DNA of 37,712 nucleotides from a virus. Taxonomy: Duplodnaviria; Heunggongvirae; Uroviricota; Caudoviricetes. Each line of letters begins with the position of its first letter. The stretch's first letter is position 1. The stretch is taken from IMG/VR virus record IMGVR_UViG_2700989168_000004. One strand, given 5' to 3'. Below, one piece after another: positions 3,393 through 37,033 of the stretch. The notes beneath the pieces are model-generated. The model saw only the letters and a list, made by a program, of their open reading frames with translations, had not been told where the DNA came from and searched no databases. A program made the translations under genes and the position numbers.

Positions 3393-4067
3393 TTAGGCTT
3401 TGATTTTGTATCTTCTTGGTTTTCCTGAGAAAATCACTGTACCAATTATAGAGCAATTACCGTTGATCTTAATGTAAGGCTCAGGCCAGTTTGGGTTTAA
3501 CGCTTTGAGATAACGCTGTGTCCCATCTTCTATCAACCTTTTGAAGGTGGTTTCGCCTGTATCGTGCATCAATGCAATAACGTCGTCACCGTGGCAGGCA
3601 GGTACTTCAGGATCGACAAAAATCATGTCTCCCGGGCGGTACTCATCAATCATTGAATCACCTATCACCCGCAAGATATAAGTCATTTCCCCACAGGGTA
3701 CAGGGCAGGGATACGTTTCTGCTGTGCTCAAATCAACCTCAGAATATCCAACTTCTTTCCATGCTCCGGCCTGTACCCATGATATGACAGGGACTAATGT
3801 GATTTGTTTATTAGTGATTGAAACATCAGGTTTTTTTGTGATGTTCGTTGTCTGGTGTTCTTGATCGAGCCATCCGACAGGCAGGTCGAAACATTTTTCG
3901 ATGTGTCGTGCCATGCTGTCACCGATATTTTTAGTAGCACCATCTCCCATAAACCTGCTGGTCTGGGTTGGCTCGCGATCAATCATAGTGGCAAAGGAAG
4001 AATTCCCGCCAACACCATCTCTCAGTTTTCTGGCGTTAGACCGCCGGATGTCATGGATTGTTTTCAT
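3393..4067 (-). CDS. cI: CI-type prophage repressor (N-terminal HTH, C-terminal S24 LexA-like peptidase domain)
   Basis: 224 aa; C-terminal segment with ISWVQAGAW...GDSM-like autocleavage domain pattern; divergent from a Cro-like gene across a region with palindromic operators. Confidence 0.85.
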   Translation of the reverse strand: MKTIHDIRRSNARKLRDGVGGNSSFATMIDREPTQTSRFMGDGATKNIGDSMARHIEKCFDLPVGWLDQEHQTTNITKKPDVSITNKQITLVPVISWVQAGAWKEVGYSEVDLSTAETYPCPVPCGEMTYILRVIGDSMIDEYRPGDMIFVDPEVPACHGDDVIALMHDTGETTFKRLIEDGTQRYLKALNPNWPEPYIKINGNCSIIGTVIFSGKPRRYKIKA

Positions 4068-8922: not shown

Positions 8923-9918
8923 GTGACCGTGAGAGCACTACTGACCCCTGAAATTGCCCCGCGTATGGGGATCGTATTGTTCAGACCAGGTTCAGAGCTG
9001 ATGCCCCTGTTTATGCAGGGGCGTGTCCTGCTGGAGCCTGAGCCGGAACGTTATTCATCTTTCGCCAGTGGTGCTGTTCCGGCGGCATCACAACCGCTGG
9101 CGGATGATCCTGCCGTTCGGGCCGTGTTCCGCAATGAGGCAGTGATCCGTCGTGCTGGTGGCGTGGAATGTCTTGAAAGCTGGTTACTTCGTGAAAAAGG
9201 CTGCCAGTGGCCTCATTCCGACTGGCACAGCGAGAACATGACCACAATGCGACACGCGCCGGGTGCAATCCGTCTGTGCTGGCACTGCGATAACCAGCTG
9301 CGCGATCAGTTCACGGAACGGCTGGAATCAATGGCAACGGATAACTGTGCCCGCTGGGTGTTGTCTGTTGTGCGTCGGGATCTCGGTTTTGATGACAGTC
9401 ACGTTGTGACAATGCCGGAACTGTGCTGGTGGCTGGTTCGTAATGACCTGGCGGGAGCCTTGCCGGAAAGTGCAGCCCGTAAGGCACTGAGATTACCGAA
9501 GCCTGTTGTGCCGTCTGTCACCCGGGAAAGTGACCTTGTTCCTTCGGTTCCTGCCACCAGCATCATCCAGGATAAAGTGAAAAAGGTGCTGGCGCTGAAA
9601 GTGGATCCGGAGTCGCCGGAGTCTTTTATGTTACGCCCAAAACGTCGCCGCTGGGTTAACGAAAAGTACACGCGCTGGGTTAAGACACAGCCGTGTGCAT
9701 GTTGTGGAAAGCCTGCTGATGATCCCCACCACCTGATAGGCCACGGTCAGGGCGGAATGGGTACAAAAGCGCATGACCTCTTTGTATTGCCTTTGTGCAG
9801 AAAGCATCACGACGAGCTGCATGCGGATACCGCGGCATTTGAAGAGAAGTATGGCTCCCAGCTGGAGTTGATATTTCGTTTTATCGATCGTGCGCTGGCA
9901 ACTGGCGTGCTGGCCTGA
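8923..9918 (+). CDS. DUF968-family protein with C-terminal Cys/His (HNH-like) motif
   Basis: C-terminal [21 protein letters not shown]...CRKHHDELH pattern; start codon uncertain (GTG at 8923 or 8929, ATG at 8965). Confidence 0.5.
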
Positions 9919-9935
9919 TTTTGTGGAGAAAGTTG

Positions 9936-10313
9936 ATGCGTGATATTCAGATGGTTCTTGAGCGTTGGGGAGCGTGGGCGGCTAATAATCATGAAGATGT
10001 GACCTGGTCGTCCATTGCCGCCGGTTTTAAGGGATTAATTCCTTCAAAAGTAAAATCTCGCCCACAATGTTGTGACGATGACGCGATGATCATTTGCGGG
10101 TGCATGGCCCGTCTGAAAAAGAACAACAGCGATTTGCATGATTTATTGGTGGACTATTATGTCGGCGGCATGACTTTTATGGCGCTTGCACGTAAGCATG
10201 GGCGATCTGATTGTTGGGTTGGCAGGATGCTCCAGAAAGCTGAGGGCGTAGTGGAGGGTATGCTGATGGTGTTGGATCTCCGATTGGAGATGGATGCTGA
10301 TTGTTCGAAATAA
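9936..10313 (+). CDS. late-gene antitermination protein Q
   Basis: About 125 aa with conserved Cys cluster ([16 protein letters not shown]), located immediately upstream of a short leader plus terminator and the late region; GGAGA RBS before ATG 9936. Confidence 0.75.
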
Positions 10314-10412
10314 TTAAAGGAAAAGTTGCTGTCTGATTGTCATTAGTCTAACATTTTAAATGTTGGAATCGCAACGTAGTTATTACCATATAACAGCTTG
10401 TTTCCTGATTTA

Positions 10413-10441
10413 GCCAGCCTCCCCAAAGGCTGGTTTTTTTC
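10413..10441 (+). terminator. tR'-type rho-independent terminator downstream of the Q gene (late promoter/qut region at about 10320-10410)
   Basis: Stem CCAGCC / GGCTGG with 8-nt loop followed by TTTTTTTCT. Confidence 0.6.
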
Positions 10442-10468
10442 TAATAAGTATTATTTCGGGTAGGGATT

Positions 10469-10993
10469 TTATTGTTTAACCCATAATAATTCATTGACAT
10501 TGAATCCCAACTTTTGAGCGGTTCGCACATAGTCTGCTTTTACTTTATCTGGAATAGTTGGGGTCCTTGCCAGAATCCATAGGTATTCTCTGTTCGGACC
10601 ACTGACAAGAGCATACTTATACTCATCATCCAGTTTGATTACATTATAGCCACCATAGAAGGGGCCAAAAAACGAAACCTTCAATGCTGCAGTTTTAGTA
10701 TCTCCAGTAAAGTATGCTTTACCTTCGCTCTCGCTCCATTTATTTTTCGTTGGATCGTATCCACGGTTAAGTACACGAATCCCTCCGTCGTTCCGTTTTC
10801 CATAAGTAGCGCTGACCTGTTCCAGATCACGTTCGAACCGGTTCTCGAGGCGAGCTATTTCATACCATTTTCCGAGGTAGCGGTTGGCGTCAAAATTTGT
10901 AATCGGCTGCACACCTTTAGGTGGTGTCGGGGCCTTACATGCTATAAGAGTGAAAGAGAGTGCAATGCCAGTCAACACAGGCCATAACTTCAT
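10469..10993 (-). CDS. blc: outer-membrane lipocalin (Blc homolog) lipoprotein
   Basis: Signal peptide with lipobox (LIAC), and long colinear matches to E. coli Blc as recalled (NFDAxRYLGxWYEIAR, KVSFFGPFYGGYNVI, YLWILxRTP). Confidence 0.9.
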   Translation of the reverse strand: MKLWPVLTGIALSFTLIACKAPTPPKGVQPITNFDANRYLGKWYEIARLENRFERDLEQVSATYGKRNDGGIRVLNRGYDPTKNKWSESEGKAYFTGDTKTAALKVSFFGPFYGGYNVIKLDDEYKYALVSGPNREYLWILARTPTIPDKVKADYVRTAQKLGFNVNELLWVKQ

Positions 10994-11185
10994 AATAAAT
11001 CCTGTACTTTTGATAGTTGAGAGTAAGTATGAAAGATAGATGATTACGACCGATCACTTAAAGAACTTTCATACTATATTAGGAATAGTCCATAACAGAA
11101 AAATTGTCAGTGATGACGCCAGAAAGGCAATTTATTCCGTGCACTACACAGTTTATGTGTTAATGAATTAGTCAAGGGGGAGAAT

Positions 11186-12145
11186 ATGATAAAAAAACCT
11201 GTGATTGGAATCAGCGGTTGTTTGGCCGGTTCTGCTGTTCGTTTTGATGGTGGTCACAAAAGAGCTGACTTTTTAATGGACAAATTAGTGGAATGGGTAA
11301 CATTCAGACCAGTATGTCCGGAAATGGCTATAGGGCTGCCAGTTCCGCGTCCTGCTCTACGTCTTGTGCGCTCGACGCAAGGAAATATACGGATGTGTTT
11401 CAGCCACGACCAGAATGAGGATGTGACAGAGAGAATGACAGAGTTTAGTCGTTCTTATATGGACAAATTAAAGGATGTATCGGGGTTTGTGGTTTGTGCT
11501 AAATCTCCCAGCTGTGGCATGGAGCGCGTGCGTGTCTATGATGAAAATGGTAATCGAGGTCGTAAAGATGGAGTGGGACTATTTACGAGTACTTTGATGG
11601 AAAAGTTTTCCTGGCTACCGGTTGAAGAGGATGGGCGATTACATGATCCAGTGCTTCGTGAGAATTTTGTTGAAAGAGTTTTTGCTTTGCATGAGCTCAA
11701 TCACCTTTACAAGGAGAAATTATCAAGAAGAGAGTTATTAGCTTTTCATAGTCGTTATAAGCTTCAGTTGTTGTCGCATAGTCAGGCAGGCTATAAAGAT
11801 ATGGGACCATTTGTGGCTGCAATACACGAGTGGGCGGACCTTGAATCATACTTTGAGGTGTATCGTGATAAGCTGATGGCGATTCTCAGAAAACCTGCAT
11901 CACGTAAAAATCACACGAATGTGCTGATGCATATACAGGGGTATTTTAGTAACTACTTAAGTACACGCCAGCGTAAAGAGTTGAGCGAGGTTATACTTAA
12001 CTATCGTTCTGGCACATTACCTCTTCTTGCGCCGTTGACTCTGCTGAAGCATTATCTGGGTGAGTATCCTAATGATTACTTGCTTACACAGAATTACTTC
12101 GATCCCTATCCGGACGAACTGGCTCTAAGACTGATGGTAAATTAA
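11186..12145 (+). CDS. DUF523 (TudS-like thiouracil desulfurase family) - DUF1722 fusion protein (tentative)
   Basis: N-terminal GISGCLAG..VRFDGG and further conserved Cys residues resemble DUF523; C-terminal half resembles YbgA/DUF1722; RBS GGGGGAG before ATG. Confidence 0.5.
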   Translation: MIKKPVIGISGCLAGSAVRFDGGHKRADFLMDKLVEWVTFRPVCPEMAIGLPVPRPALRLVRSTQGNIRMCFSHDQNEDVTERMTEFSRSYMDKLKDVSGFVVCAKSPSCGMERVRVYDENGNRGRKDGVGLFTSTLMEKFSWLPVEEDGRLHDPVLRENFVERVFALHELNHLYKEKLSRRELLAFHSRYKLQLLSHSQAGYKDMGPFVAAIHEWADLESYFEVYRDKLMAILRKPASRKNHTNVLMHIQGYFSNYLSTRQRKELSEVILNYRSGTLPLLAPLTLLKHYLGEYPNDYLLTQNYFDPYPDELALRLMVN

Positions 12146-12496
12146 TTGTATGCGATATCATCCAAAAGGATGAGTTCCTGCATGCAGGATATTTACAATC
12201 GTAAAAACTACACTATGATACCCAGAGTGTCAGTTTGTATAAAAACTCTGTTTACGCTGAAGAAACAATTGAGATGCAACTTAAAGTTGGTAAACATGCC
12301 AGTCAAAATATATAATATTATGATTCCACGCAGCTATATATAATATAACAGATTGGTTTAATAATTTGTCTTTGTGAGTTAAATACATAATTTTATACTT
12401 GTGATGCAATGAAATTTTCCTTATTGTTGAACTTGCGAATATTGATTTTCCACCTATACTTACCTGGTGTAACCCCAATGATATCAGGTGGATAAT

Positions 12497-13228
12497 ATGC
12501 CATACATATGTTCTATCATTTTGGTGTTGAACTCGTTTGATGTCCGAATTGGTAAAGAAGATATTTTGTTTAAAAAAGGAAGTGCTGTTCTCATTGATTA
12601 CAATTTAAAAGATTTTTTTTCATCAAATATAGATCATGTAATGATCGTAGATGTTGAAGAGAAAACAGTTAATGATTTCTTTAAAAGCAACACACTCTCA
12701 CCTTTTTCTGTAAGAAGGTTTTATCCGGCATACTTGATGGTGGAATGTGAAGATTTTTCATTGTTAAAGAACTTGATTGCATGCTTGAATTGTGATGGCA
12801 GAACTGTGGATTTTGTTAGAAATCAAATATCACTTGCATGTCTTGCTATCTTATCTTCAGAGAAAATAGTGCAAAGTTTTTTATTTGGATGTCTTAATAG
12901 TTTAGGAAGTAAAGTTAAGGCTATTATTCACACGGATATATCTGCAGCATGGAGACTTTGTGATATATCTTCAAGACTGTATCTGAGTGAAAGTCTGTTA
13001 AAAAGAAAATTAAAGCACGAAGGCTTATCATTTAGTAAGTTAATTCTTGAAGAGCGAATGGTGATGGCGGAAAGGTTATTAAGCTACAATTTATATTCTG
13101 TTGGAAAAGTTGCTGAGATATGCGGTTATGAAAACACGTCATATTTTGTGAGTGTTTTCAGAAGATATTTTGGTGTTCCTCCCCATCAATATTCATCAAG
13201 ATTTTTTTTAGAAAAAGACATGATGTAA
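12497..13228 (+). CDS. AraC-family transcriptional regulator
   Basis: C-terminal dual-HTH AraC signature (...KVAEICGYENTSYFVSVFRRYFGVPPHQY); gene is strongly AT-rich; ATG 12497 after AGGTGG. Confidence 0.85.
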   Translation: MPYICSIILVLNSFDVRIGKEDILFKKGSAVLIDYNLKDFFSSNIDHVMIVDVEEKTVNDFFKSNTLSPFSVRRFYPAYLMVECEDFSLLKNLIACLNCDGRTVDFVRNQISLACLAILSSEKIVQSFLFGCLNSLGSKVKAIIHTDISAAWRLCDISSRLYLSESLLKRKLKHEGLSFSKLILEERMVMAERLLSYNLYSVGKVAEICGYENTSYFVSVFRRYFGVPPHQYSSRFFLEKDMM

Positions 13229-13289
13229 CGTGATGCGTTTTAATGATTTTGTAATTTTCGTATTTGATAATTGTATGATGCTTTCAGCT

Positions 13290-13321
13290 ACGCCAGAATA
13301 ATCGCTGGCGTTTTTCTTTTT
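13290..13321 (+). terminator. rho-independent terminator after the AraC-family gene
   Basis: Stem ACGCCAG / CTGGCGT followed by TTTTTCTTTTT. Confidence 0.6.
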
Positions 13322-13416
13322 GAATAGATGTTCAAGCCTTACGCTAATGTAACTTCTATACCTTTCCTCTTCGTTCCGAACCGTGTACACCATCCGTTAT
13401 TTGCGGAGGTGAGGCT

Positions 13417-13632
13417 ATGAAATCTATGGATAAGTTAACAACGGGCATTGCCTACGGCACCTCCGCAGGCAGTGCTGGCTACTGGTTTTTACAGCTGCTC
13501 GATAAAGTCACGCCCTCACAGTGGGCAGCAATAGGTGTGCTGGGTAGCCTGGTATTTGGCCTGCTGACGTACCTGACAAACCTTTATTTCAAGATTAAAG
13601 AAGATAAGCGCAAGGCTGCGAGAGGTGAATAA
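13417..13632 (+). CDS. pinholin (phage 21 S21-type class II holin) with dual-start motif
   Basis: Near-identical by recall to S21 ([24 protein letters not shown]...KAARGE); two Met codons (M1, M4) as in antiholin/holin S2171/S2168. Confidence 0.9.
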
Positions 13633-14129
13633 TGCCTCCATCATTACGAAAAGCCGTTGCTGCGGCTATTGGTGGCGGGGCTATTGCTATAGCATCTGTG
13701 TTAATCACTGGCCCAAGTGGTAACGATGGTCTGGAAGGCGTCAGCTACATACCATATAAAGATATCGTTGGTGTATGGACTGTATGTTACGGGCATACCG
13801 GAAAAGACATTATGCTCGGTAAAACGTATACCGAAGCAGAATGCAAAGCCCTCCTGAATAAAGACCTTGCCACTGTCGCCAGACAAATTAACCCGTACAT
13901 CAAAGTCGATATACCGGAAACAACGCGCGGCGCTCTTTACTCGTTCGTTTACAACGTTGGTGCTGGAAATTTCAGAACATCGACACTTCTTCGCAAAATA
14001 AACCAGGGCGATATCAAAGGCGCATGTGATCAGCTACGGCGCTGGACATACGCTGGCGGTAAGCAATGGAAAGGGCTGATGACTCGCCGTGAGATTGAGC
14101 GTGAAGTCTGTTTGTGGGGGCAACAATGA
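13632..14129 (+). CDS. SAR (signal-anchor-release) endolysin, lysozyme family
   Basis: N-terminal hydrophobic Gly/Ala-rich SAR segment followed by lysozyme catalytic region; start overlaps holin stop (TAATG). Confidence 0.9.
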
Positions 14130-14569
14130 GTAGAGTAACCGCGATTATCTCCGCTCTGGTTATCAGCATCATCGTCTGCCTGTCATGGGCTGTTAATCAT
14201 TACCGTGATAACGCCATGACCTACAAAGAACAGCGCGACAAAGCCACATCCATCATCGCTGACATGCAGAAGCGTCAACATGATGTAGCTGAACTCGACG
14301 CCAGATACACAAAGGAGCTTGCTGATGCTAACGCGACTATCGAAAGTCTTCGTGCTGATGTTTCTGCTGGTCGTAAGTGGCTGCACGTCAAAGCAGTCTG
14401 TCCGGACAAGCATAAAACCACCGCCGCCTCCGGCGTGGATGATGCTTCCAGCCCCAGACTTACTGACACCGCTCAACGGGATTATTTCGTTCTCAGAGAG
14501 CGCATCGAAACCATAACTAACCAATTGAATGGCCTGCAAGAATATGTGAGATCACAGTGTTCATATTAG
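14126..14569 (+). CDS. i-spanin Rz
   Basis: N-terminal TM segment, coiled-coil-rich body, directly after the endolysin (ATGA overlap); contains embedded Rz1 frame. Confidence 0.8.
14358..14516 (+). CDS. o-spanin Rz1 (lipoprotein) embedded in the +1 frame of Rz
   Basis: Signal peptide with lipobox (VVSGC) followed by proline-rich segment ([10 protein letters not shown]); entirely inside Rz. Confidence 0.7.
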
Positions 14570-14607
14570 AAAAGTCTTATCATAAGATTTTTGTATATGG
14601 ATGCATT

Positions 14608-14982
14608 ATGTCTCAATACGCTCACGTTGCTTTAATCGCTTATCATTTGGTGGCTGATAGCTCAATGACTCCTCGTGATGCATGGGATGCAGCTATCGCA
14701 GAGGTTACAGAAAGCGAATCGTCAAGAAAGAAGATATGCCCAAGGGCAACATTTCTCGCCCTGGCGGATAGCGGTTACCTGAAGAATGTAAAACCACTGC
14801 ATGGGGAGAAAAAAGGCGGTAAGTTGTACCAAAGGGCAATTGAAGTTGCGAATCTGATTCTTGATTTACCCGGAATCAGTAAAGCTGAATTGGTTGATAA
14901 AACTGGTTACAAAGACAGGCAAGGGTCTTATGACCTGATTCTCGCTCTGTATCATCATGAGCAACTCCAGCGATCGGAATAA
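14608..14982 (+). CDS. hypothetical 124-aa protein (unknown function)
   Basis: ORF between spanins and packaging genes; the track start at 14557 is a GTG overlapping Rz, so ATG 14608 is preferred; no motif recognised. Confidence 0.45.
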   Translation: MSQYAHVALIAYHLVADSSMTPRDAWDAAIAEVTESESSRKKICPRATFLALADSGYLKNVKPLHGEKKGGKLYQRAIEVANLILDLPGISKAELVDKTGYKDRQGSYDLILALYHHEQLQRSE

Positions 14983-15368: not shown

Positions 15369-15776
15369 ATGCCACCACGAACCCCAAAAGCCTGCCGTGT
15401 TCGCGGCTGCCGCCATACCACAACTGNNNNNNNNNNNNNNNNNNNNNNNNNNNNNNNNNNNNNNNNNNNNNNNNNNNNNNNNNNNNNNNNNNNNNNNNNN
15501 NNNNNNNNNNNNNNNNNNNNNNNNNAGCAATACAAGCCGGGCCAGTCCAGACACCAGCGCGGTTATGGTTCGAAATGGGATGTTATCCGTGAACGTGTGC
15601 TCAAGCGTGACAAAGGACTGTGTCAGTTATGTCTGCGTGGTGGTGTGGTACGTGAGGCGAAAACCGTTGACCACATCATCCCTAAAGCGCATGGCGGCAC
15701 TGATGCCGACAGCAATCTGCAGAGCCTGTGCTGGCCGTGTCATAAGGCGAAGACGGCCCGTGAACGGTTGAAGTAA
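15369..15776 (+). CDS. phage HNH endonuclease (packaging-associated); interrupted by N run 15427-15525
   Basis: C-terminal HNH motif (VDHIIPKAHGG...N...CWPCH); N-terminal CRVRGC zinc-finger-like start; immediately upstream of terminase genes. Confidence 0.8.
   Translation: MPPRTPKACRVRGCRHTTTXXXXXXXXXXXXXXXXXXXXXXXXXXXXXXXXXXQYKPGQSRHQRGYGSKWDVIRERVLKRDKGLCQLCLRGGVVREAKTVDHIIPKAHGGTDADSNLQSLCWPCHKAKTARERLK
15427..15525. other. run of 99 N (assembly gap or masked bases)
   Basis: Literal n characters in the sequence. Confidence 1.
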
Positions 15777-15901: not shown

Positions 15902-16487
15902 ATGGCTGGAACGGCGGGGCGTTCCGGGCGTCGCCCCAAGCCAACGGCGCGCAAGGCGCTGNNNNNNNNNNNNNNNNNNNNNNNNNNNNNNNNNNNNNNN
16001 NNNNNNNNNNNNNNNNNNNNNNNNNAACCCCGGCAAGCGAGCCCTGAACAAAGATGAACCTGTTTTTACGCCCATCAAAGGTGTTGAGCCACCGGAGTGG
16101 TTCGCAGAAGAAGATCTCCCTCTCGCCACGATCATGTGGCAACTGACAACCAAAGAACTCTGCGGTCAGGGCCTGCTGTGCGTGACTGACCTTGCGGTAC
16201 TTGAGCGGTGGTGCGTGGCCTATGAGTTCTGGCGACGTGCCGTGAAAAATATTGCCAGACAGGGCAACACCATCACCGGTGCAATGGGTGGCATGGTTAA
16301 AAATCCGGAGCTGACCGCCAAGAAAGAACAGGAGTCCGAGATGAGCAGCACGGGGGCAATGCTCGGACTCGACCCCAGCAGCCGCCAGCGTCTGATTGGC
16401 CTGGCGGGGCAGAAGAAAGCNNNNNNNNNNNNNNNNNNNNNNNNNNNNNNNNNNNNNNNNNNNNNNNNNNNNNNNNNNNNNNNNTAA
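15902..16487 (+). CDS. terminase small subunit (P27-family-like); interrupted by two N runs, frame inferred
   Basis: Starts MAGTAGRSGRRPKPTARKAL (typical of this family) at ATG 15902; resumes after the gap in the track frame; stop TAA directly after the second N run. Confidence 0.7.
15962..16025. other. run of 64 N
   Basis: Literal n characters. Confidence 1.
16421..16484. other. run of 64 N
   Basis: Literal n characters. Confidence 1.
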
Positions 16488-23728: not shown

Positions 23729-25272
23729 CACCATTCCGTCGAATACGCTGGTTCCGTTGTTTTATGCGGAAATGGATAACCAGGCGGCGAATACTGCACA
23801 GGACAGCGGAGCATCGCTGCTGATTGGTCATGCCAATAACGGTGCAGAGATTGTTGCCAACAGTCTGGTGCTGATGCCATCGGCAGACTATGCACGCCAG
23901 ATTTGTGGTGCGGGAAGTCAGCTGGCGCGTATGGTCGAGGCTTATCGCCAGACCGACCCGTTTGGTGAACTGTATGTGATTGCCGTTCCTGAATCCACGG
24001 GCGCGGCGGCAACAGTTACGCTGACGGTGACCGGCGCGGCAACCGAAACCGGCACGGTGAATGTTTATGTGGGACGTACCCGCGTGCAGGCACCGGTGAC
24101 CAACGGCGATAACGTCGCGACGATTGCCAGCAGTATCCAGGATGCCATCAATGCCGTTCCGACCCTGCCGTTTACGGCTTCATCTTCGGCAGGCGTGGTC
24201 ACACTGACCGCGCGTCATAAGGGGCTTTGCGGGAATGAAATTCCTGTCAGCCTCAATTACTACGGCTTTGGTGGGGGCGAAGTGCTGCCAGCGGGCGTAC
24301 AGATTGCCGTGGCGACGGGTACCGCCGGAACGGGCGCTCCTGTTCTCACCGGCGCGGNNNNNNNNNNNNNNNNNNNNNNNNNNNNNNNNNNNNNNNNNNN
24401 NNNNNNNNNNNNNNNNNNNNNNNNNNNNNNNNNNNNNNNNNNNNNNNNNNNNNNNNNNNNNNNNNNNNNNNNNNNNNNNNNNNNNNNNNNNNNTGGTGAC
24501 CGAGATGAACGATACCAGCGGTCGCTGGAGCTATGCGCGTCAGCTGTATGGTCATGTGTACACGGCAAAGATCGGCACGCTGTCAGAACTGGTGACCGCA
24601 GGTGACCAGTTTAACCAGCAGCACATTACCCTGGCGGGATACGAAAAAGAGACCCAGACGCCTGCCGACGAGCTGGCGGCAAGCCGTACCGCCCGCGCAG
24701 CGGTGTTTATTCGCAACGATCCGGCACGTCCCACGCAGACCGGTGAGCTGGTGGGTATGCTGCCTGCGCCGAAGGGGAAACGGTTCACGATGACCGAACA
24801 ACAGACCCTGCTGTCTCATGGCGTGGCAACGGCGTATGTCGAAAGCGGGGTGCTGCGCATTCAGCGTGATGTCACCACGTACAGGAAAAACGCTTACGGT
24901 GTTGCGGATAACAGCTACCTCGACAGCGAGACGCTGCATACCAGCGCGTATGTACTGCGCAAACTGAAATCCGTCATTACCAGTAAGTACGGGCGTCACA
25001 AGCTTGCCAGCGACGGTACCCGCTTTGGTCCCGGTCAGGCGATTGTCACCCCGGCGGTGATCAAAGGGGAACTGCTGGCAACCTACCGTCAGCTTGAGCG
25101 TGCGGGGATCGTGGAAAACTACGAACTTTTTAAGCAGTACCTGGTTGTGGAGCGTGATGCCAGCGATCCGAACCGCCTGAACACGCTGTTCCCGCCTGAC
25201 TATGTTAACCAGTTGCGTGTCTTTGCCGTGGTTAACCAGTTCCGTCTTCAGTATTCAGAGGAGTCCGCATAA
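23712..25272 (+). CDS. contractile tail sheath protein (Mu gpL-like); interrupted by N run 24358-24493
   Basis: N- and C-terminal parts lie either side of the gap in different nominal frames; combined size about 520 aa. Confidence 0.85.
24358..24493. other. run of 136 N
   Basis: Literal n characters. Confidence 1.
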
Positions 25273-34230: not shown

Positions 34231-35751
34231 CTATAGGTTAAGTTTTTTGTTAAATACTAATATTACTCTTCCTTCAAAGTTCAAAACTTCGTCAGGCTTA
34301 CCTAATTGTTCTTGAATACCTGCAAGGCAGGATGTCATTTCTTTACATCGTTCAGGTTCGTTAGCTATGGAAACTGCTATAAACTGTCGCTCAGGAGCAG
34401 AATTGAACGCCTCCTTGCTATGCCAAGAAGCCAGTGTCTGTTGTCTCACGCCAGTAAAGTTAATTTTCCCCGAATCAGCATTAAAGAAAACAGGAGTTAT
34501 CTGTATGTCCCCACCAGATAACCAATTTACAGTCATTGACAAATCCCAAAAAGAGCCGTACCCATAATGGAGATTATTTTTTTTTAAAAAATCAATGTAT
34601 GATTTAACAATCTTCTCCTGATCGTGTAATGGTGAAGCATTATTTGTGTAAGATTTAATTGAACTGATCGAAAATAAAAATGCGATTAGATAAAATAATA
34701 TCTTTGCTTTTGTTGATGTACCGATACAGCACAATATCAGTGCGAAACAGGTAACATTCATAAAGAAACGCATGCTAATATAATCAGGGGATTTATAGCT
34801 CAGTATGAATGATGAGACAATACCTGCGATAGATAATAATGAAAATAACACAATATAAATACGGTATGTGTTTTTTTTATTGTCCGATAAAACAAACCAC
34901 GCAGATGTAATAATGGCAATGAACCAAATGACAAATGAGGCGTAAGATGTTGCGTTATTGTCGACAACTAATAAATTAAGACTTTTTCCTATTAACAGAA
35001 TGCACCATTTTGCATTTAAAATCATATCATTGAGTGATACAATTTCAAATTGGTGGGGAGGTATGTTAAGTAGATTTTGCAATACATTGGAAAGAGAGAT
35101 TAAACATGCAAATAGTATTAATGCAGTATGCTTAAATAATTTTTTATCCCATACAGAGAATAAAAAGTAAGATATTAATAGTGGAATAAAAAATGCAGCT
35201 GTAAACCACGGATCGGATACGCTGGAAAATAATGCTGTCAAACTTAAGAGGAGAGTGATAAATATATTTTTATACTGTATGTTGAAAACAGATATAAGCA
35301 AGCATAAAAAGCCGAAAGCGTTTGTTGAATTATGAGAAAAAGGATGTGATACAAAACCATAAGTGTATGAAAAATATGGTATTAGAGATAGAAGTATAAT
35401 AGAAAATAAAGCAGGGGTAAACCCGAATGCCTTACGTAGCGTTAACATCGCTGCTATTACTATAGCAATAGAGAAAACTGCAGTTGATAATCTTAATGCT
35501 ACTAAGCCATCATCACCTAACAGCATATAAAATAAAAAGTTAATTGGGTAAACGGTGAAATACCAATTATCCACGGTTGGTTTCCAGTCGTGGATTGATG
35601 ATATACCATTCTCTAAAATATGCCTCCATACAATTGGGCTGTTAGCAACATCCGGTTCAACTGGAAAGTATCTGGTAGTCAACCAAGTTATTAGGAGTGC
35701 TGATAAAGCCAATAATATTTTTAATGCTGATTGTTTAATACATATGCTCAT
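34231..35751 (-). CDS. serotype-specific O-antigen glucosyltransferase (Gtr type-specific, polytopic membrane protein)
   Basis: 506 aa, many hydrophobic helices, AT-rich, directly downstream of gtrA-gtrB on the same strand; type cannot be assigned by eye. Confidence 0.75.
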   Translation of the reverse strand: MSICIKQSALKILLALSALLITWLTTRYFPVEPDVANSPIVWRHILENGISSIHDWKPTVDNWYFTVYPINFLFYMLLGDDGLVALRLSTAVFSIAIVIAAMLTLRKAFGFTPALFSIILLSLIPYFSYTYGFVSHPFSHNSTNAFGFLCLLISVFNIQYKNIFITLLLSLTALFSSVSDPWFTAAFFIPLLISYFLFSVWDKKLFKHTALILFACLISLSNVLQNLLNIPPHQFEIVSLNDMILNAKWCILLIGKSLNLLVVDNNATSYASFVIWFIAIITSAWFVLSDNKKNTYRIYIVLFSLLSIAGIVSSFILSYKSPDYISMRFFMNVTCFALILCCIGTSTKAKILFYLIAFLFSISSIKSYTNNASPLHDQEKIVKSYIDFLKKNNLHYGYGSFWDLSMTVNWLSGGDIQITPVFFNADSGKINFTGVRQQTLASWHSKEAFNSAPERQFIAVSIANEPERCKEMTSCLAGIQEQLGKPDEVLNFEGRVILVFNKKLNL

Positions 35752-35753
35752 GG

Positions 35754-36674
35754 TTATTTTCTACCTTTCTTCAAAATATACTTAGGTCTTGATTTTGTTT
35801 CTAAGTAAATTCTACCTATATATTCACCGAGAACACCAATCCCGATCAGTTGCACTCCACCCAAGAAAAGTATTGATACAAGCAGGGAGGGATACCCGCG
35901 TACTGGGTTACCAAAGACAAGGGTGTCTATAATCATCCATGCACCATATAAAAATGAAATGCTTGCAACAAACAAGCCTATATAAGTCCATACGCGAAGA
36001 GGAAAGGTTGAAAAACTTGTGATACCTTCCAGTGCCAGATTCCATAATTTCCAGCCATTAAATTTTGAGATGCCAGCAACACGCTCTGCGCGTACATATT
36101 CAACGACATCCGTCTGACCACCCACCCAGCTCAGTATGCCTTTCATGAAAAGATTGCGCTCAGGCAACAGTTTAATGTTCTCCACAACCTCACGAGACAT
36201 GAGTCGAAAATCTCCGACATTTTCCTCGATCTTTGGGGTGCTTATTTTGTTGTGTAATTTATAGAACCACTCAGCTGTCTTACGTTTCAGTCGTCCATCA
36301 GTTGAGCGGTCTGAACGTTTAGCAAGCACCATGTCAGCACCTGCCTGCCACTTTTCAATAAGATGAGGGATAACCTCAATTGGGTCTTGCAGGTCGACAT
36401 CAATAGGAATTACAGCATCGCCGCTTGCATGGTCTAACCCTGCAAATAAGGCTGGTTCTTTACCAAAGTTGCGTGTAAATGACAGCGGAACAACTAGCGG
36501 GTCTGAAACAGCCAGCGCGTTAATAATTGACTCTGTGGCATCTTTACTTCCGTCATTTATGAATACAATTTCTACTTCATATGGCTTCAACTCTTGGAAT
36601 TCACGTACCGTTTTATAGAAAACAGGTATCGCTTCTTCTTCATTGAAGACAGGAACGACAAGAGATATTTTCAT
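35754..36674 (-). CDS. gtrB: bactoprenol glucosyltransferase GtrB (GT2 family)
   Basis: 306 aa with GT2 signatures ([21 protein letters not shown]) and C-terminal TM segments. Confidence 0.9.
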
Positions 36675-37033
36675 TTCGCATCCCTAAAGACAATGAACTT
36701 TGAATAGACGAAACCGCACACCAGACTGATGGCGGAGAAGGTGATAAGAGTGACTATTGGAGGAAGTGAGCATTTATCAGCTGCCCAACCAACAATCACA
36801 CTCAATATTCCCATAAATCCCACGTATAACATGTAGCGCATCGCTGTAGTCGATGCTTTGAATGTGAATCTTGCATTCGCGAAGAAGCTAAAGCTCACAG
36901 CCACTACGAAACCTGTGAAGTTTGCCAGAGCCTGACTGGTATGTGCGGCATAGATACATACACCAAAAACCACCCAGTGTATAAGTGTGTTCAGCACACC
37001 TATAGATGTGTACTTTACAAATAACTTTAACAT
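36671..37033 (-). CDS. gtrA: GtrA flippase-like small membrane protein
   Basis: 120 aa, near-identical by recall to serotype-converting phage GtrA ([27 protein letters not shown]...). Confidence 0.9.

Follow-up and report, generated by a model that had tools for sequence, protein, structure and literature searches.

Here we have analysed a viral genome of 37,712 nucleotides, IMG/VR record IMGVR_UViG_2700989168_000004 (the window, by which we mean this whole stretch), and find that its gene at 11186..12145 on the plus strand, rudS, very probably encodes a transfer RNA (tRNA) 4-thiouridine (s4U) desulfidase of the RudS family, as judged from sequence and domain content. The window is a prophage whose regulatory and lysis region is lambdoid, and in it rudS sits between the late antiterminator gene Q and the holin gene as the middle member of a three-gene cargo cassette made up of blc on the minus strand and rudS and an AraC-like regulator gene on the plus strand. 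To the fuller account, in which this RudS enzyme serves lysogenic conversion and is expressed additionally in the late phase, we give about even chances. The enzyme, including that of this phage lineage, is already known, a near-identical phage copy having been cloned and assayed in 2024, and our literature searches on RudS or DUF1722 together with prophage returned nothing beyond that one RudS paper. What appears to be unreported is the prevalence of the gene in E. coli prophages, the co-capture of a RudS-linked lipocalin, the cassette without a MerR gene, its conservation under purifying selection, and a further case in Proteus; these additions are incremental. They bear on a setting of wider relevance, in that bacteria rarely have tRNA "eraser" enzymes and RudS is one that travels on phages.

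The rudS gene is an uninterrupted open reading frame (ORF) from ATG to stop, preceded by a Shine-Dalgarno-like GGGGGAG that ends 5 nt upstream of the start codon, and specifies 319 residues. An earlier note on this DNA had read the product as a DUF523/DUF1722 fusion of an iron-sulfur enzyme family, and profile searches bear this out: in Pfam, PF04463 (2-thiouracil desulfurase, formerly DUF523; TudS) matches residues 7-149 (E 3.1e-40) and PF08349 (DUF1722) matches residues 192-309 (E 3.4e-40), both scores far exceed the gathering scores, and a single polypeptide with TudS at the N terminus and DUF1722 at the C terminus has the RudS order. The cysteine ligand pattern to which the same note pointed is in place as C12, C44 and C110, together with the catalytic residues E46, R55, S107 and S109, and none of the seven positions varies in alignments of 12 and of 16 homologues. 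Equivalence of E46, R55, S107 and S109 to residues of the Pseudomonas enzyme RudS_KT is taken from offsets to the neighbouring cysteines, in the numbering of Table 1 of the RudS paper, and not from a direct alignment. The RudS loop is also present as R19-F20-D21-G22, the equivalent of R24-Y25-N26-G27 in RudS_KT. By sequence and profile searches, the only entry reached in the PDB is TudS 6Z92 (E 2e-4, aligned over residues 6-67 only), where C12, C44 and E46 align with C10, C43 and E45; the third cysteine, C104 in TudS, lies outside that alignment, and C110 rests on a numbering identical to that of the phage enzyme RudS_vir and the Salmonella enzyme RudS_ST. An AlphaFold2 model built on a 16-sequence alignment was discarded (mean predicted local distance difference test 57.7, predicted template modelling score 0.38), its poor quality being due to an alignment that is too shallow and sequences that are too similar. 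Current annotation of the gene is uninformative: RefSeq has "YbgA family protein", elsewhere it is "hypothetical", and phrog_3275, which matches the protein over its full length, is of "unknown function" in PHROG, such that a renaming is possible.

The closest characterized protein is gp66 of phage 1H12 (H3V29_gp66, NC_049947), the RudS_vir of Jamontas et al. (Nucleic Acids Res 2024; PMC11417400), with which the window's protein shares 93% identity along its full 319 residues without gaps (22 differences), the DNA alleles being 92% identical. RudS_vir is listed in Table 1 of that study as a TudS-DUF1722 protein with conserved Cys12, Cys44 and Cys110 (PMC11417400). RudS enzymes turn s4U in tRNA into uridine: overexpression of six orthologues, RudS_vir among them, lowered s4U in E. 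coli bulk tRNA by 4.7- to 26-fold (18-fold for RudS_ST), with 2-thiocytidine unchanged, and neither stand-alone TudS nor YbgA lowered tRNA s4U (PMC11417400). The earlier note had the fusion acting on thiolated nucleobases; given the published main substrate of RudS_vir and five bacterial orthologues, tRNA s4U has to take their place. The activity of the Pseudomonas putida enzyme RudS_KT was lost on mutation of the cluster cysteines, Glu51, Ser111, Ser113 or Arg60, a Y25F variant behaved like wild type, and modelling docked the DUF1722 domain on the anticodon arm of tRNA (PMC11417400). In addition, 94% of DUF1722-encoding species also encode ThiI, the response to the s4U8-C13 photo-cross-link comprises growth delay, uncharged tRNA and guanosine tetraphosphate (ppGpp), and overexpressed RudS_KT brought down the delay in E. 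coli growth caused by ultraviolet A (UVA), from about 105 min to about 60 min (PMC11417400).

In the mechanism that we propose for the window's protein, C12, C44 and C110 would hold a [4Fe-4S] cluster whose fourth iron binds the thione sulfur, while E46, oriented by R55, S107 and S109, would activate a water molecule for attack; the C-terminal DUF1722 domain would dock the anticodon arm, and s4U at position 8/9 of host tRNA would thereby be returned to uridine. The host makes the substrate, as E. coli has thiI and carries s4U8 in its tRNA, and no thiI is present in the window. This s4U8 is a near-ultraviolet (near-UV) chromophore, and its cross-link to C13 blocks tRNA charging, with growth delay and the stringent response as consequences. 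Removal of s4U would keep translation running under UVA, and we infer that the benefit is relief from this cross-link response. E. coli itself would have only a truncated YbgA, with the prophage copy supplying the lysogen's tRNA s4U eraser. Expression of rudS in lysogens may occur, as is typical of morons, and the gene would also be transcribed with the late operon after induction, because it lies in sense orientation downstream of Q with no MerR gene alongside.

It is improbable, in our view, that the enzyme serves instead in the salvage or detoxification of free thiolated pyrimidines (4-thiouracil, or 4-thiouridine monophosphate (s4UMP) from RNA turnover) in the manner of TudS. The N-terminal domain does belong to the TudS family and aligns with 6Z92 over the first two ligands, and TudS enzymes are reported to recycle s4UMP (PMC10611767). 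Furthermore, RudS_vir, though well expressed, is a comparatively weak tRNA desulfidase for its protein level and, of the RudS enzymes put to the test, was the one with the shortest lag on 4-thiouracil (PMC11417400). On the other hand, RudS_vir did lower tRNA s4U, no RudS tested used thiouracils for growth as TudS does, and none supported growth on 2-thiouracil (PMC11417400); moreover, the tRNA-binding DUF1722 domain is retained under purifying selection. The suggestion in the earlier note that the gene could detoxify modified bases thus keeps a weak foothold in the 4-thiouracil lag but loses its footing where TudS-like growth on thiouracils is concerned. The clade formed by the window's protein and that of 1H12 differs from ten chromosomal homologues at invariant or nearly invariant positions (T14A, R71C, P76Q, P142S, G178K, R255S and R267S), and the three lost arginines (R71C, R255S, R267S) might relate to the lower tRNA activity of RudS_vir.

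Among the nearest known systems, RudS_vir shares the length of 319 residues, the three cysteines and the slot (Q, Blc on the minus strand, RudS, AraC-like, holin), and differs at 22 residues and in its virion module, that of the window being contractile-tailed and Mu-like whereas the reported viral RudS genes are all from Siphoviridae (PMC11417400). RudS_ST (ORF319, STM1389 of Salmonella enterica LT2) and the enterobacterial RudS proteins linked to MerR or to cyclopropane fatty acid (CFA) synthase share the 319-residue architecture and the catalytic residues at 68-76% identity; these chromosomal copies neighbour a regulator gene of MerR/MlrA-like type, in many cases together with a divergently oriented lipocalin gene, or form the end of a CFA-synthase operon, whereas the phage copy lies in a late operon without MerR. 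RudS_KT (PP_0741 of P. putida KT2440) has C17, C49, C114, E51, R60, S111 and S113, all with equivalents in the window's protein by numbering offsets, while the residue at its N26 position is Asp in every enterobacterial and phage protein that we examined; unlike the phage copy, PP_0741 shares with phrB an operon that is under LitR control and induced by light (PMC11417400). TudS (6Z92) has the PF04463 domain in common with the window's protein but is a single-domain enzyme of about 166 residues acting on free bases and nucleotides, and the 319-residue fusion falls outside the stand-alone TudS type (a single domain of about 150-170 residues with rescue on thiouracils). YbgA of E. coli K-12 (b0707), a stand-alone DUF1722 protein of about 169 residues without a TudS domain, is 48% identical to residues 164-315 and has no effect on tRNA s4U (PMC11417400). 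The NCBIfam YbgA model PRK10167 matches residues 160-315 at 188.8 bits, below its 237-bit equivalog cut-off, which places the protein outside YbgA; the "YbgA family protein" label undersells the window's gene.

The earlier note's placement of the gene as late-region cargo agrees with its surroundings, in which Q and a holin gene flank the cassette as they do in the lambdoid moron (Q-S) cargo slot. The elements concerned are as follows.

3393-4067, minus strand: S24-type repressor gene.
9921..10313, plus strand: late antiterminator gene Q (Pfam Phage_antitermQ, E 2.5e-51), marking the start of the late transcription unit.
10412..10445, plus strand: terminator-like hairpin and T run (hairpin at 10412-10435) between Q and the 3' end of blc, with a 9-bp stem, 5 GC pairs and the T run TTTTTTT.
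10469..10993, minus strand: blc, divergent from rudS, for a Blc-like outer-membrane lipocalin of 174 residues (Pfam Lipocalin_2; NCBIfam Blc subfamily, 314 bits).
10994..11185, no strand: divergent spacer of 192 bp between blc and rudS, without a MerR gene or remnant.
12488..13228, plus strand: gene for a YdeO/GadX-like AraC-family regulator of 246 residues (Pfam HTH_18/HTH_AraC; phrog_1450, of unknown function).
13290..13321, plus strand: second terminator-like element (hairpin at 13290-13311) in the gap between the AraC gene and the holin gene, with a 7-bp stem, 5 GC pairs and a T run, closing the cassette as a moron-type unit.
13417..13632, plus strand: P21-type holin gene S (Pfam Phage_holin_2_1, E 2.2e-35), the first lysis gene and the downstream edge of the cargo slot.

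Beyond the holin, the ORF list and the RefSeq annotation of a closely similar prophage, that of E. coli WP8-S18-ESBL-07 (97-99% identical over most of the window), give genes for endolysin, Rz, terminase, portal and capsid and then for tail and baseplate, the latter a contractile, Mu-like set. The slot is variable among related phages, and mEp332, ev099 and PhiR70_1 carry OmpD/NmpC-type porins in it instead.

The two plus-strand cassette genes, rudS and the AraC gene, lie in sense to Q-antiterminated late transcription, and blc lies antisense. By analogy with the PR'-qut-tR' arrangement of lambdoid late units, the hairpin at 10412-10435 is a candidate for the tR' that ends the short PR' transcript and gives way to read-through under active Q; it could also end blc transcription from the other strand. 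The 192-bp spacer presumably holds the blc promoter and possibly a rudS promoter too. Matches to sigma-70 in it are weak only (one at 11017-11044; best scores 9 of 12), and a promoter scan counted 14 promoter-like sites where shuffles led us to expect 10.8 +/- 3.0, which is no enrichment. The spacer is 90% identical between alleles, about as the flanking genes are, and we dismissed the idea of a special constraint on it for that reason. Searches by tblastn with the MerR proteins of Serratia and Enterobacter found nothing significant in the spacer or in the window as a whole. With neither a MerR nor a Phr homologue in the window, the context that is typical of RudS without defining it (a light-responsive operon, a MerR/LitR regulator, a photolyase) is missing, and this is a difference in regulation and not in family membership. 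The RudS paper connects the MerR-family regulators beside chromosomal RudS genes with a LitR-type response to light, which has been shown for Pseudomonas and is suggested in the cases of Salmonella and Enterobacter cloacae (PMC11417400).

These features can also be arranged into a mainly lytic role, which we hold to be possible though rather doubtful. RudS made from the Q-antiterminated transcript after SOS induction or UV would erase s4U and so spare late phage translation from UVA cross-links, uncharged tRNA and ppGpp; the lysis switch would here replace the usual MerR/LitR light switch, and this alternative departs from our preferred account only in the beneficiary. Its strengths are the sense position of rudS between Q and holin, downstream of a tR'-like terminator, the lack of a MerR regulator and of a strong promoter of its own, the independent occurrence of a Q-downstream RudS in a Proteus prophage, and the presence of the cassette in separate phage genome records (1H12 and relatives, IdasGreatGrand). 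Arguing the other way are the moron-like layout with its own downstream terminator, the company of a lipocalin and an AraC-like regulator, both typical lysogenic-conversion genes, and the persistence of the cassette in prophage regions interrupted by insertion sequences (E. coli HS, BL21); in addition, tRNAs that are already cross-linked are not repairable by removal of s4U.

Several observations weigh against the preferred account of a tRNA s4U eraser expressed in lysogens with an additional late phase. The promoter scan found no convincing sigma-70 promoter upstream of rudS from which expression in the lysogen could be read, and for the late phase we infer Q dependence from position alone. 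Activity of the window's allele is transferred from the 93%-identical RudS_vir across the 22 differences, and the weaker action of RudS_vir on tRNA together with its short 4-thiouracil lag means that the preferred substrate in vivo could differ somewhat. The published activity data all come from overexpression, and the UVA phenotype was obtained with the Pseudomonas enzyme and not the phage one (PMC11417400). In the Qin-like prophage of BL21, rudS is cut by IS3 after about 49 codons (locus L015, 3501-3647), such that the gene is dispensable there. Finally, the absence of MerR may predate capture by the phage.

BL21(DE3), the host of the published RudS overexpression assays, is thereby a natural rudS-null background.

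The gene is nonetheless widespread and well kept. Full-length rudS (at least 90% DNA identity and at least 80% coverage) occurs in 1064 of 5426 complete E. coli genomes (about 20%), almost always on the chromosome, and the 3.8-kb stretch from Q to holin is covered to at least 80% in 979 genomes. E. coli has been said to be without RudS (PMC11417400; also a 2026 review in Microbiology and Molecular Biology Reviews), statements that the genome count contradicts. The cassette is also present in twelve deposited phage genomes, those of 1H12 with relatives and, at 98% identity, that of IdasGreatGrand; the order Q-blc-rudS-AraC-holin recurs in 1H12, in IdasGreatGrand and in the prophages of E. coli HS and 2013C-4282. 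Among 80 IMG/VR viral contigs, 71 have this order with blc alone on the minus strand, and 79 have a blc-rudS spacer of exactly 192 bp. The backbones around the cassette differ: a Qin-like element in the commensal E. coli HS, where rudS is intact, a DLP12-like lysis module by iss in 2013C-4282, and the contractile-tailed prophage of the window. Prophage content could thus underlie differences between strains in tRNA s4U, in growth delay under near-UV, in the kinetics of the stringent response and in labelling experiments that rely on s4U.

Could rudS merely have hitch-hiked with blc or with the AraC regulator, as a neutral passenger with no selected role in E. coli prophages? The IS3 truncation in BL21 speaks for this, as do 72 of the 1136 genomes with a rudS match in which coverage is below 80%. 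However, the ratio of non-synonymous to synonymous substitution rates (dN/dS) comes to 0.11 when the window's allele is compared with that of 1H12 and to 0.22 when it is compared with that of E. coli HS, indicating that rudS is kept by purifying selection, though dispensable; for all that the 80 viral contigs encode 22 protein variants, the ORF and all seven key residues are intact in every one of them, and the gene is retained in unrelated prophage backbones and in about a fifth of complete E. coli genomes. We accordingly consider a neutral passenger very unlikely.

To place the phage copy among its chromosomal relatives we used a scan of one genome per species, which yielded 80 loci (L097-L176) and, within Enterobacterales, two RudS paralogue subfamilies.

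Phr-linked subfamily: 51 loci, 55-62% identity to the window's RudS, with a photolyase gene immediately downstream in 48 of 51.
Second paralogue: 28 chromosomal loci (68-76% identity to the window's RudS) plus L124 (93%, a phage fragment).

The first is the counterpart of ybgA-phr in E. coli K-12, and the link between DUF1722 and photolyase genes to which the earlier note alluded is evident both there and in these 48 loci; the E. coli ybgA-phr pair looks like a truncated RudS-Phr operon. The second paralogue, to which the phage copy is closer, occurs in three contexts. In Citrobacter, Klebsiella michiganensis and others it stands at the end of an operon of short-chain dehydrogenase/reductase (SDR), amine oxidase, DUF1365, CFA synthase, DUF2878 and DUF3833 genes, the full set being present in 12 loci and DUF3833 only in one truncated contig. 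In 11-12 loci (Enterobacter spp., Leclercia, Raoultella, Buttiauxella, Lelliottia) it follows a minus-strand Blc gene and a plus-strand MerR/MlrA-like gene, a module that a separate contig look-up also found in Serratia rubidaea. Two loci (Salmonella diarizonae and an Enterobacter metagenome-assembled genome (MAG)) have MerR-RudS alone, an arrangement seen too in Enterobacter cloacae in a separate contig look-up. Two further MAGs, assigned to unrelated phyla, gave rudS matches of enterobacterial type that are most likely binning contamination: L124 ("Candidatus Nanosynbacter"), with a 93% identical rudS and phage AraC and holin genes, would be a mis-binned phage fragment, and L101 ("uncultured Clostridiales") has a 74% identical rudS with a Citrobacter-type CFA-synthase operon.

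The lipocalin points to the Blc-MerR-RudS module as the source. The phage lipocalin is 76% identical to the one beside MerR-RudS in Serratia rubidaea and 74-81% identical to RudS-linked lipocalins at large (Enterobacter, Leclercia, Buttiauxella, others), but only 59% identical to K-12 Blc. DNA similarity to Serratia, in which the blc-rudS interval is 1288 bp and contains the MerR/MlrA-like gene, spans blc and rudS and skips the 1.3-kb merR interval. Together, these identities and this DNA similarity suggest that blc and rudS were probably captured together from a chromosomal lipocalin-MerR-RudS module. We abandoned deletion of MerR after capture as a firm conclusion, as it is weakened by Kluyvera cryocrescens, where the Blc and RudS genes stand about 115 bp apart on the chromosome with no MerR gene; in Huaxiibacter, a transthyretin-like gene occupies the MerR position. 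The recurrent lipocalin-RudS linkage may reflect a response to photo-oxidative membrane stress.

The third cassette gene probably has a different history. GC content is 43-44% in blc and rudS, 32% in the AraC gene and 50% in the window, a contrast within the cassette that suggests at least two acquisitions, and on this compositional ground the AraC gene was probably acquired separately from blc and rudS, from which it is set apart by an AT-rich spacer of 342 bp. Its coding sequence in the RefSeq and 1H12 records starts at ATG 12497, 9 bp shorter than the ORF call from GTG 12488. The best NCBIfam match of the product is YdeO (127 bits), followed by HilD and GadX, all below cut-offs; it is 82% identical to the 1H12 allele and has 52% identical relatives elsewhere in other coliphages. 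Similar prophage-borne AraC-like regulators of E. coli, namely PatE, PsrA, PsrB and AppY, control acid resistance and type III secretion.

Capture of RudS by prophages has occurred more than once. Proteus myxofaciens ATCC 19692 (locus L164, 2385-7754) carries an intact RudS that belongs to the Phr-linked subfamily and is 57% identical to that of the window, downstream of a prophage Q in the order Q, a 475-residue phage lysozyme/amidase-like protein, RudS, an ADP-ribosyltransferase resembling pertussis S1 and enterotoxin A, and two small ORFs; the ADP-ribosyltransferase is a candidate AB-type toxin. Here a RudS was acquired independently in a slot of the same type, which favours a real use at the level of the phage. 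A more far-reaching proposal, which we put forward as speculative and on balance unlikely, is that prophages have repeatedly captured the s4U eraser, drawing on two subfamilies (E. coli lambdoid prophages and Proteus), and placed it under the lysis switch, the E. coli copy without MerR; induction of the kind caused by sunlight would then disable the tRNA UVA sensor together with the stringent response, late translation would proceed, and approximately one fifth of E. coli strains would differ from K-12 and BL21 in UVA and tRNA-modification physiology.

Location in a variable phage cargo slot also invites a counter-defence role, in which RudS would alter host tRNA or nucleotides to evade an immune system of the host or of a competing phage, for example a tRNA-targeting nuclease or a modified-nucleotide signal. 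Variable phage cargo slots often carry defence and anti-defence genes, and location is the sole support for this idea. Against it, PADLOC returned no matches for the three cassette proteins, the cassette holds no defence genes, the genes most closely related to it are housekeeping stress genes found in operons for light response or photolyase, and we know of no s4U-dependent defence system. We find it scarcely credible, and the earlier proposal that the gene counters a nucleotide-based host defence has nothing in these results to stand on.

Elsewhere, in Salmonella enterica serovar Derby (locus L009, 3285-6814), a 73% identical RudS has on one side ttcA (PF01171, of the tRNA 2-thiocytidine synthase family) and on the other a phage-type gene with DUF1367. 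In E. coli, ttcA is the Rac attachment region, and the Derby locus may be a prophage remnant with RudS beside another tRNA-thiolation gene.

As for the rest of the window, an Rfam scan of 9800-13700 gave no family at gathering score, and no tRNA genes were found in the window. Four masked N runs (15427-15525, 15962-16025, 16421-16484 and 24358-24493, of 99, 64, 64 and 136 bases) leave the rudS locus untouched; an apparent frameshift in the tail-sheath gene is false, being caused by the run at 24358-24493. Another small cargo slot lies directly 3' of Rz/spanin and 5' of the HNH-terminase block, where a DUF6979 protein of 141 residues is encoded (14557-14982, plus strand). At 34231-37033 on the minus strand, a module of about 34% GC encodes GtrA (120 residues), a GtrB-like family 2 glycosyltransferase (306 residues) and a 506-residue protein without a Pfam match; this is probably an O-antigen glucosylation (serotype conversion) module, and would be a second lysogenic-conversion cargo of the prophage.

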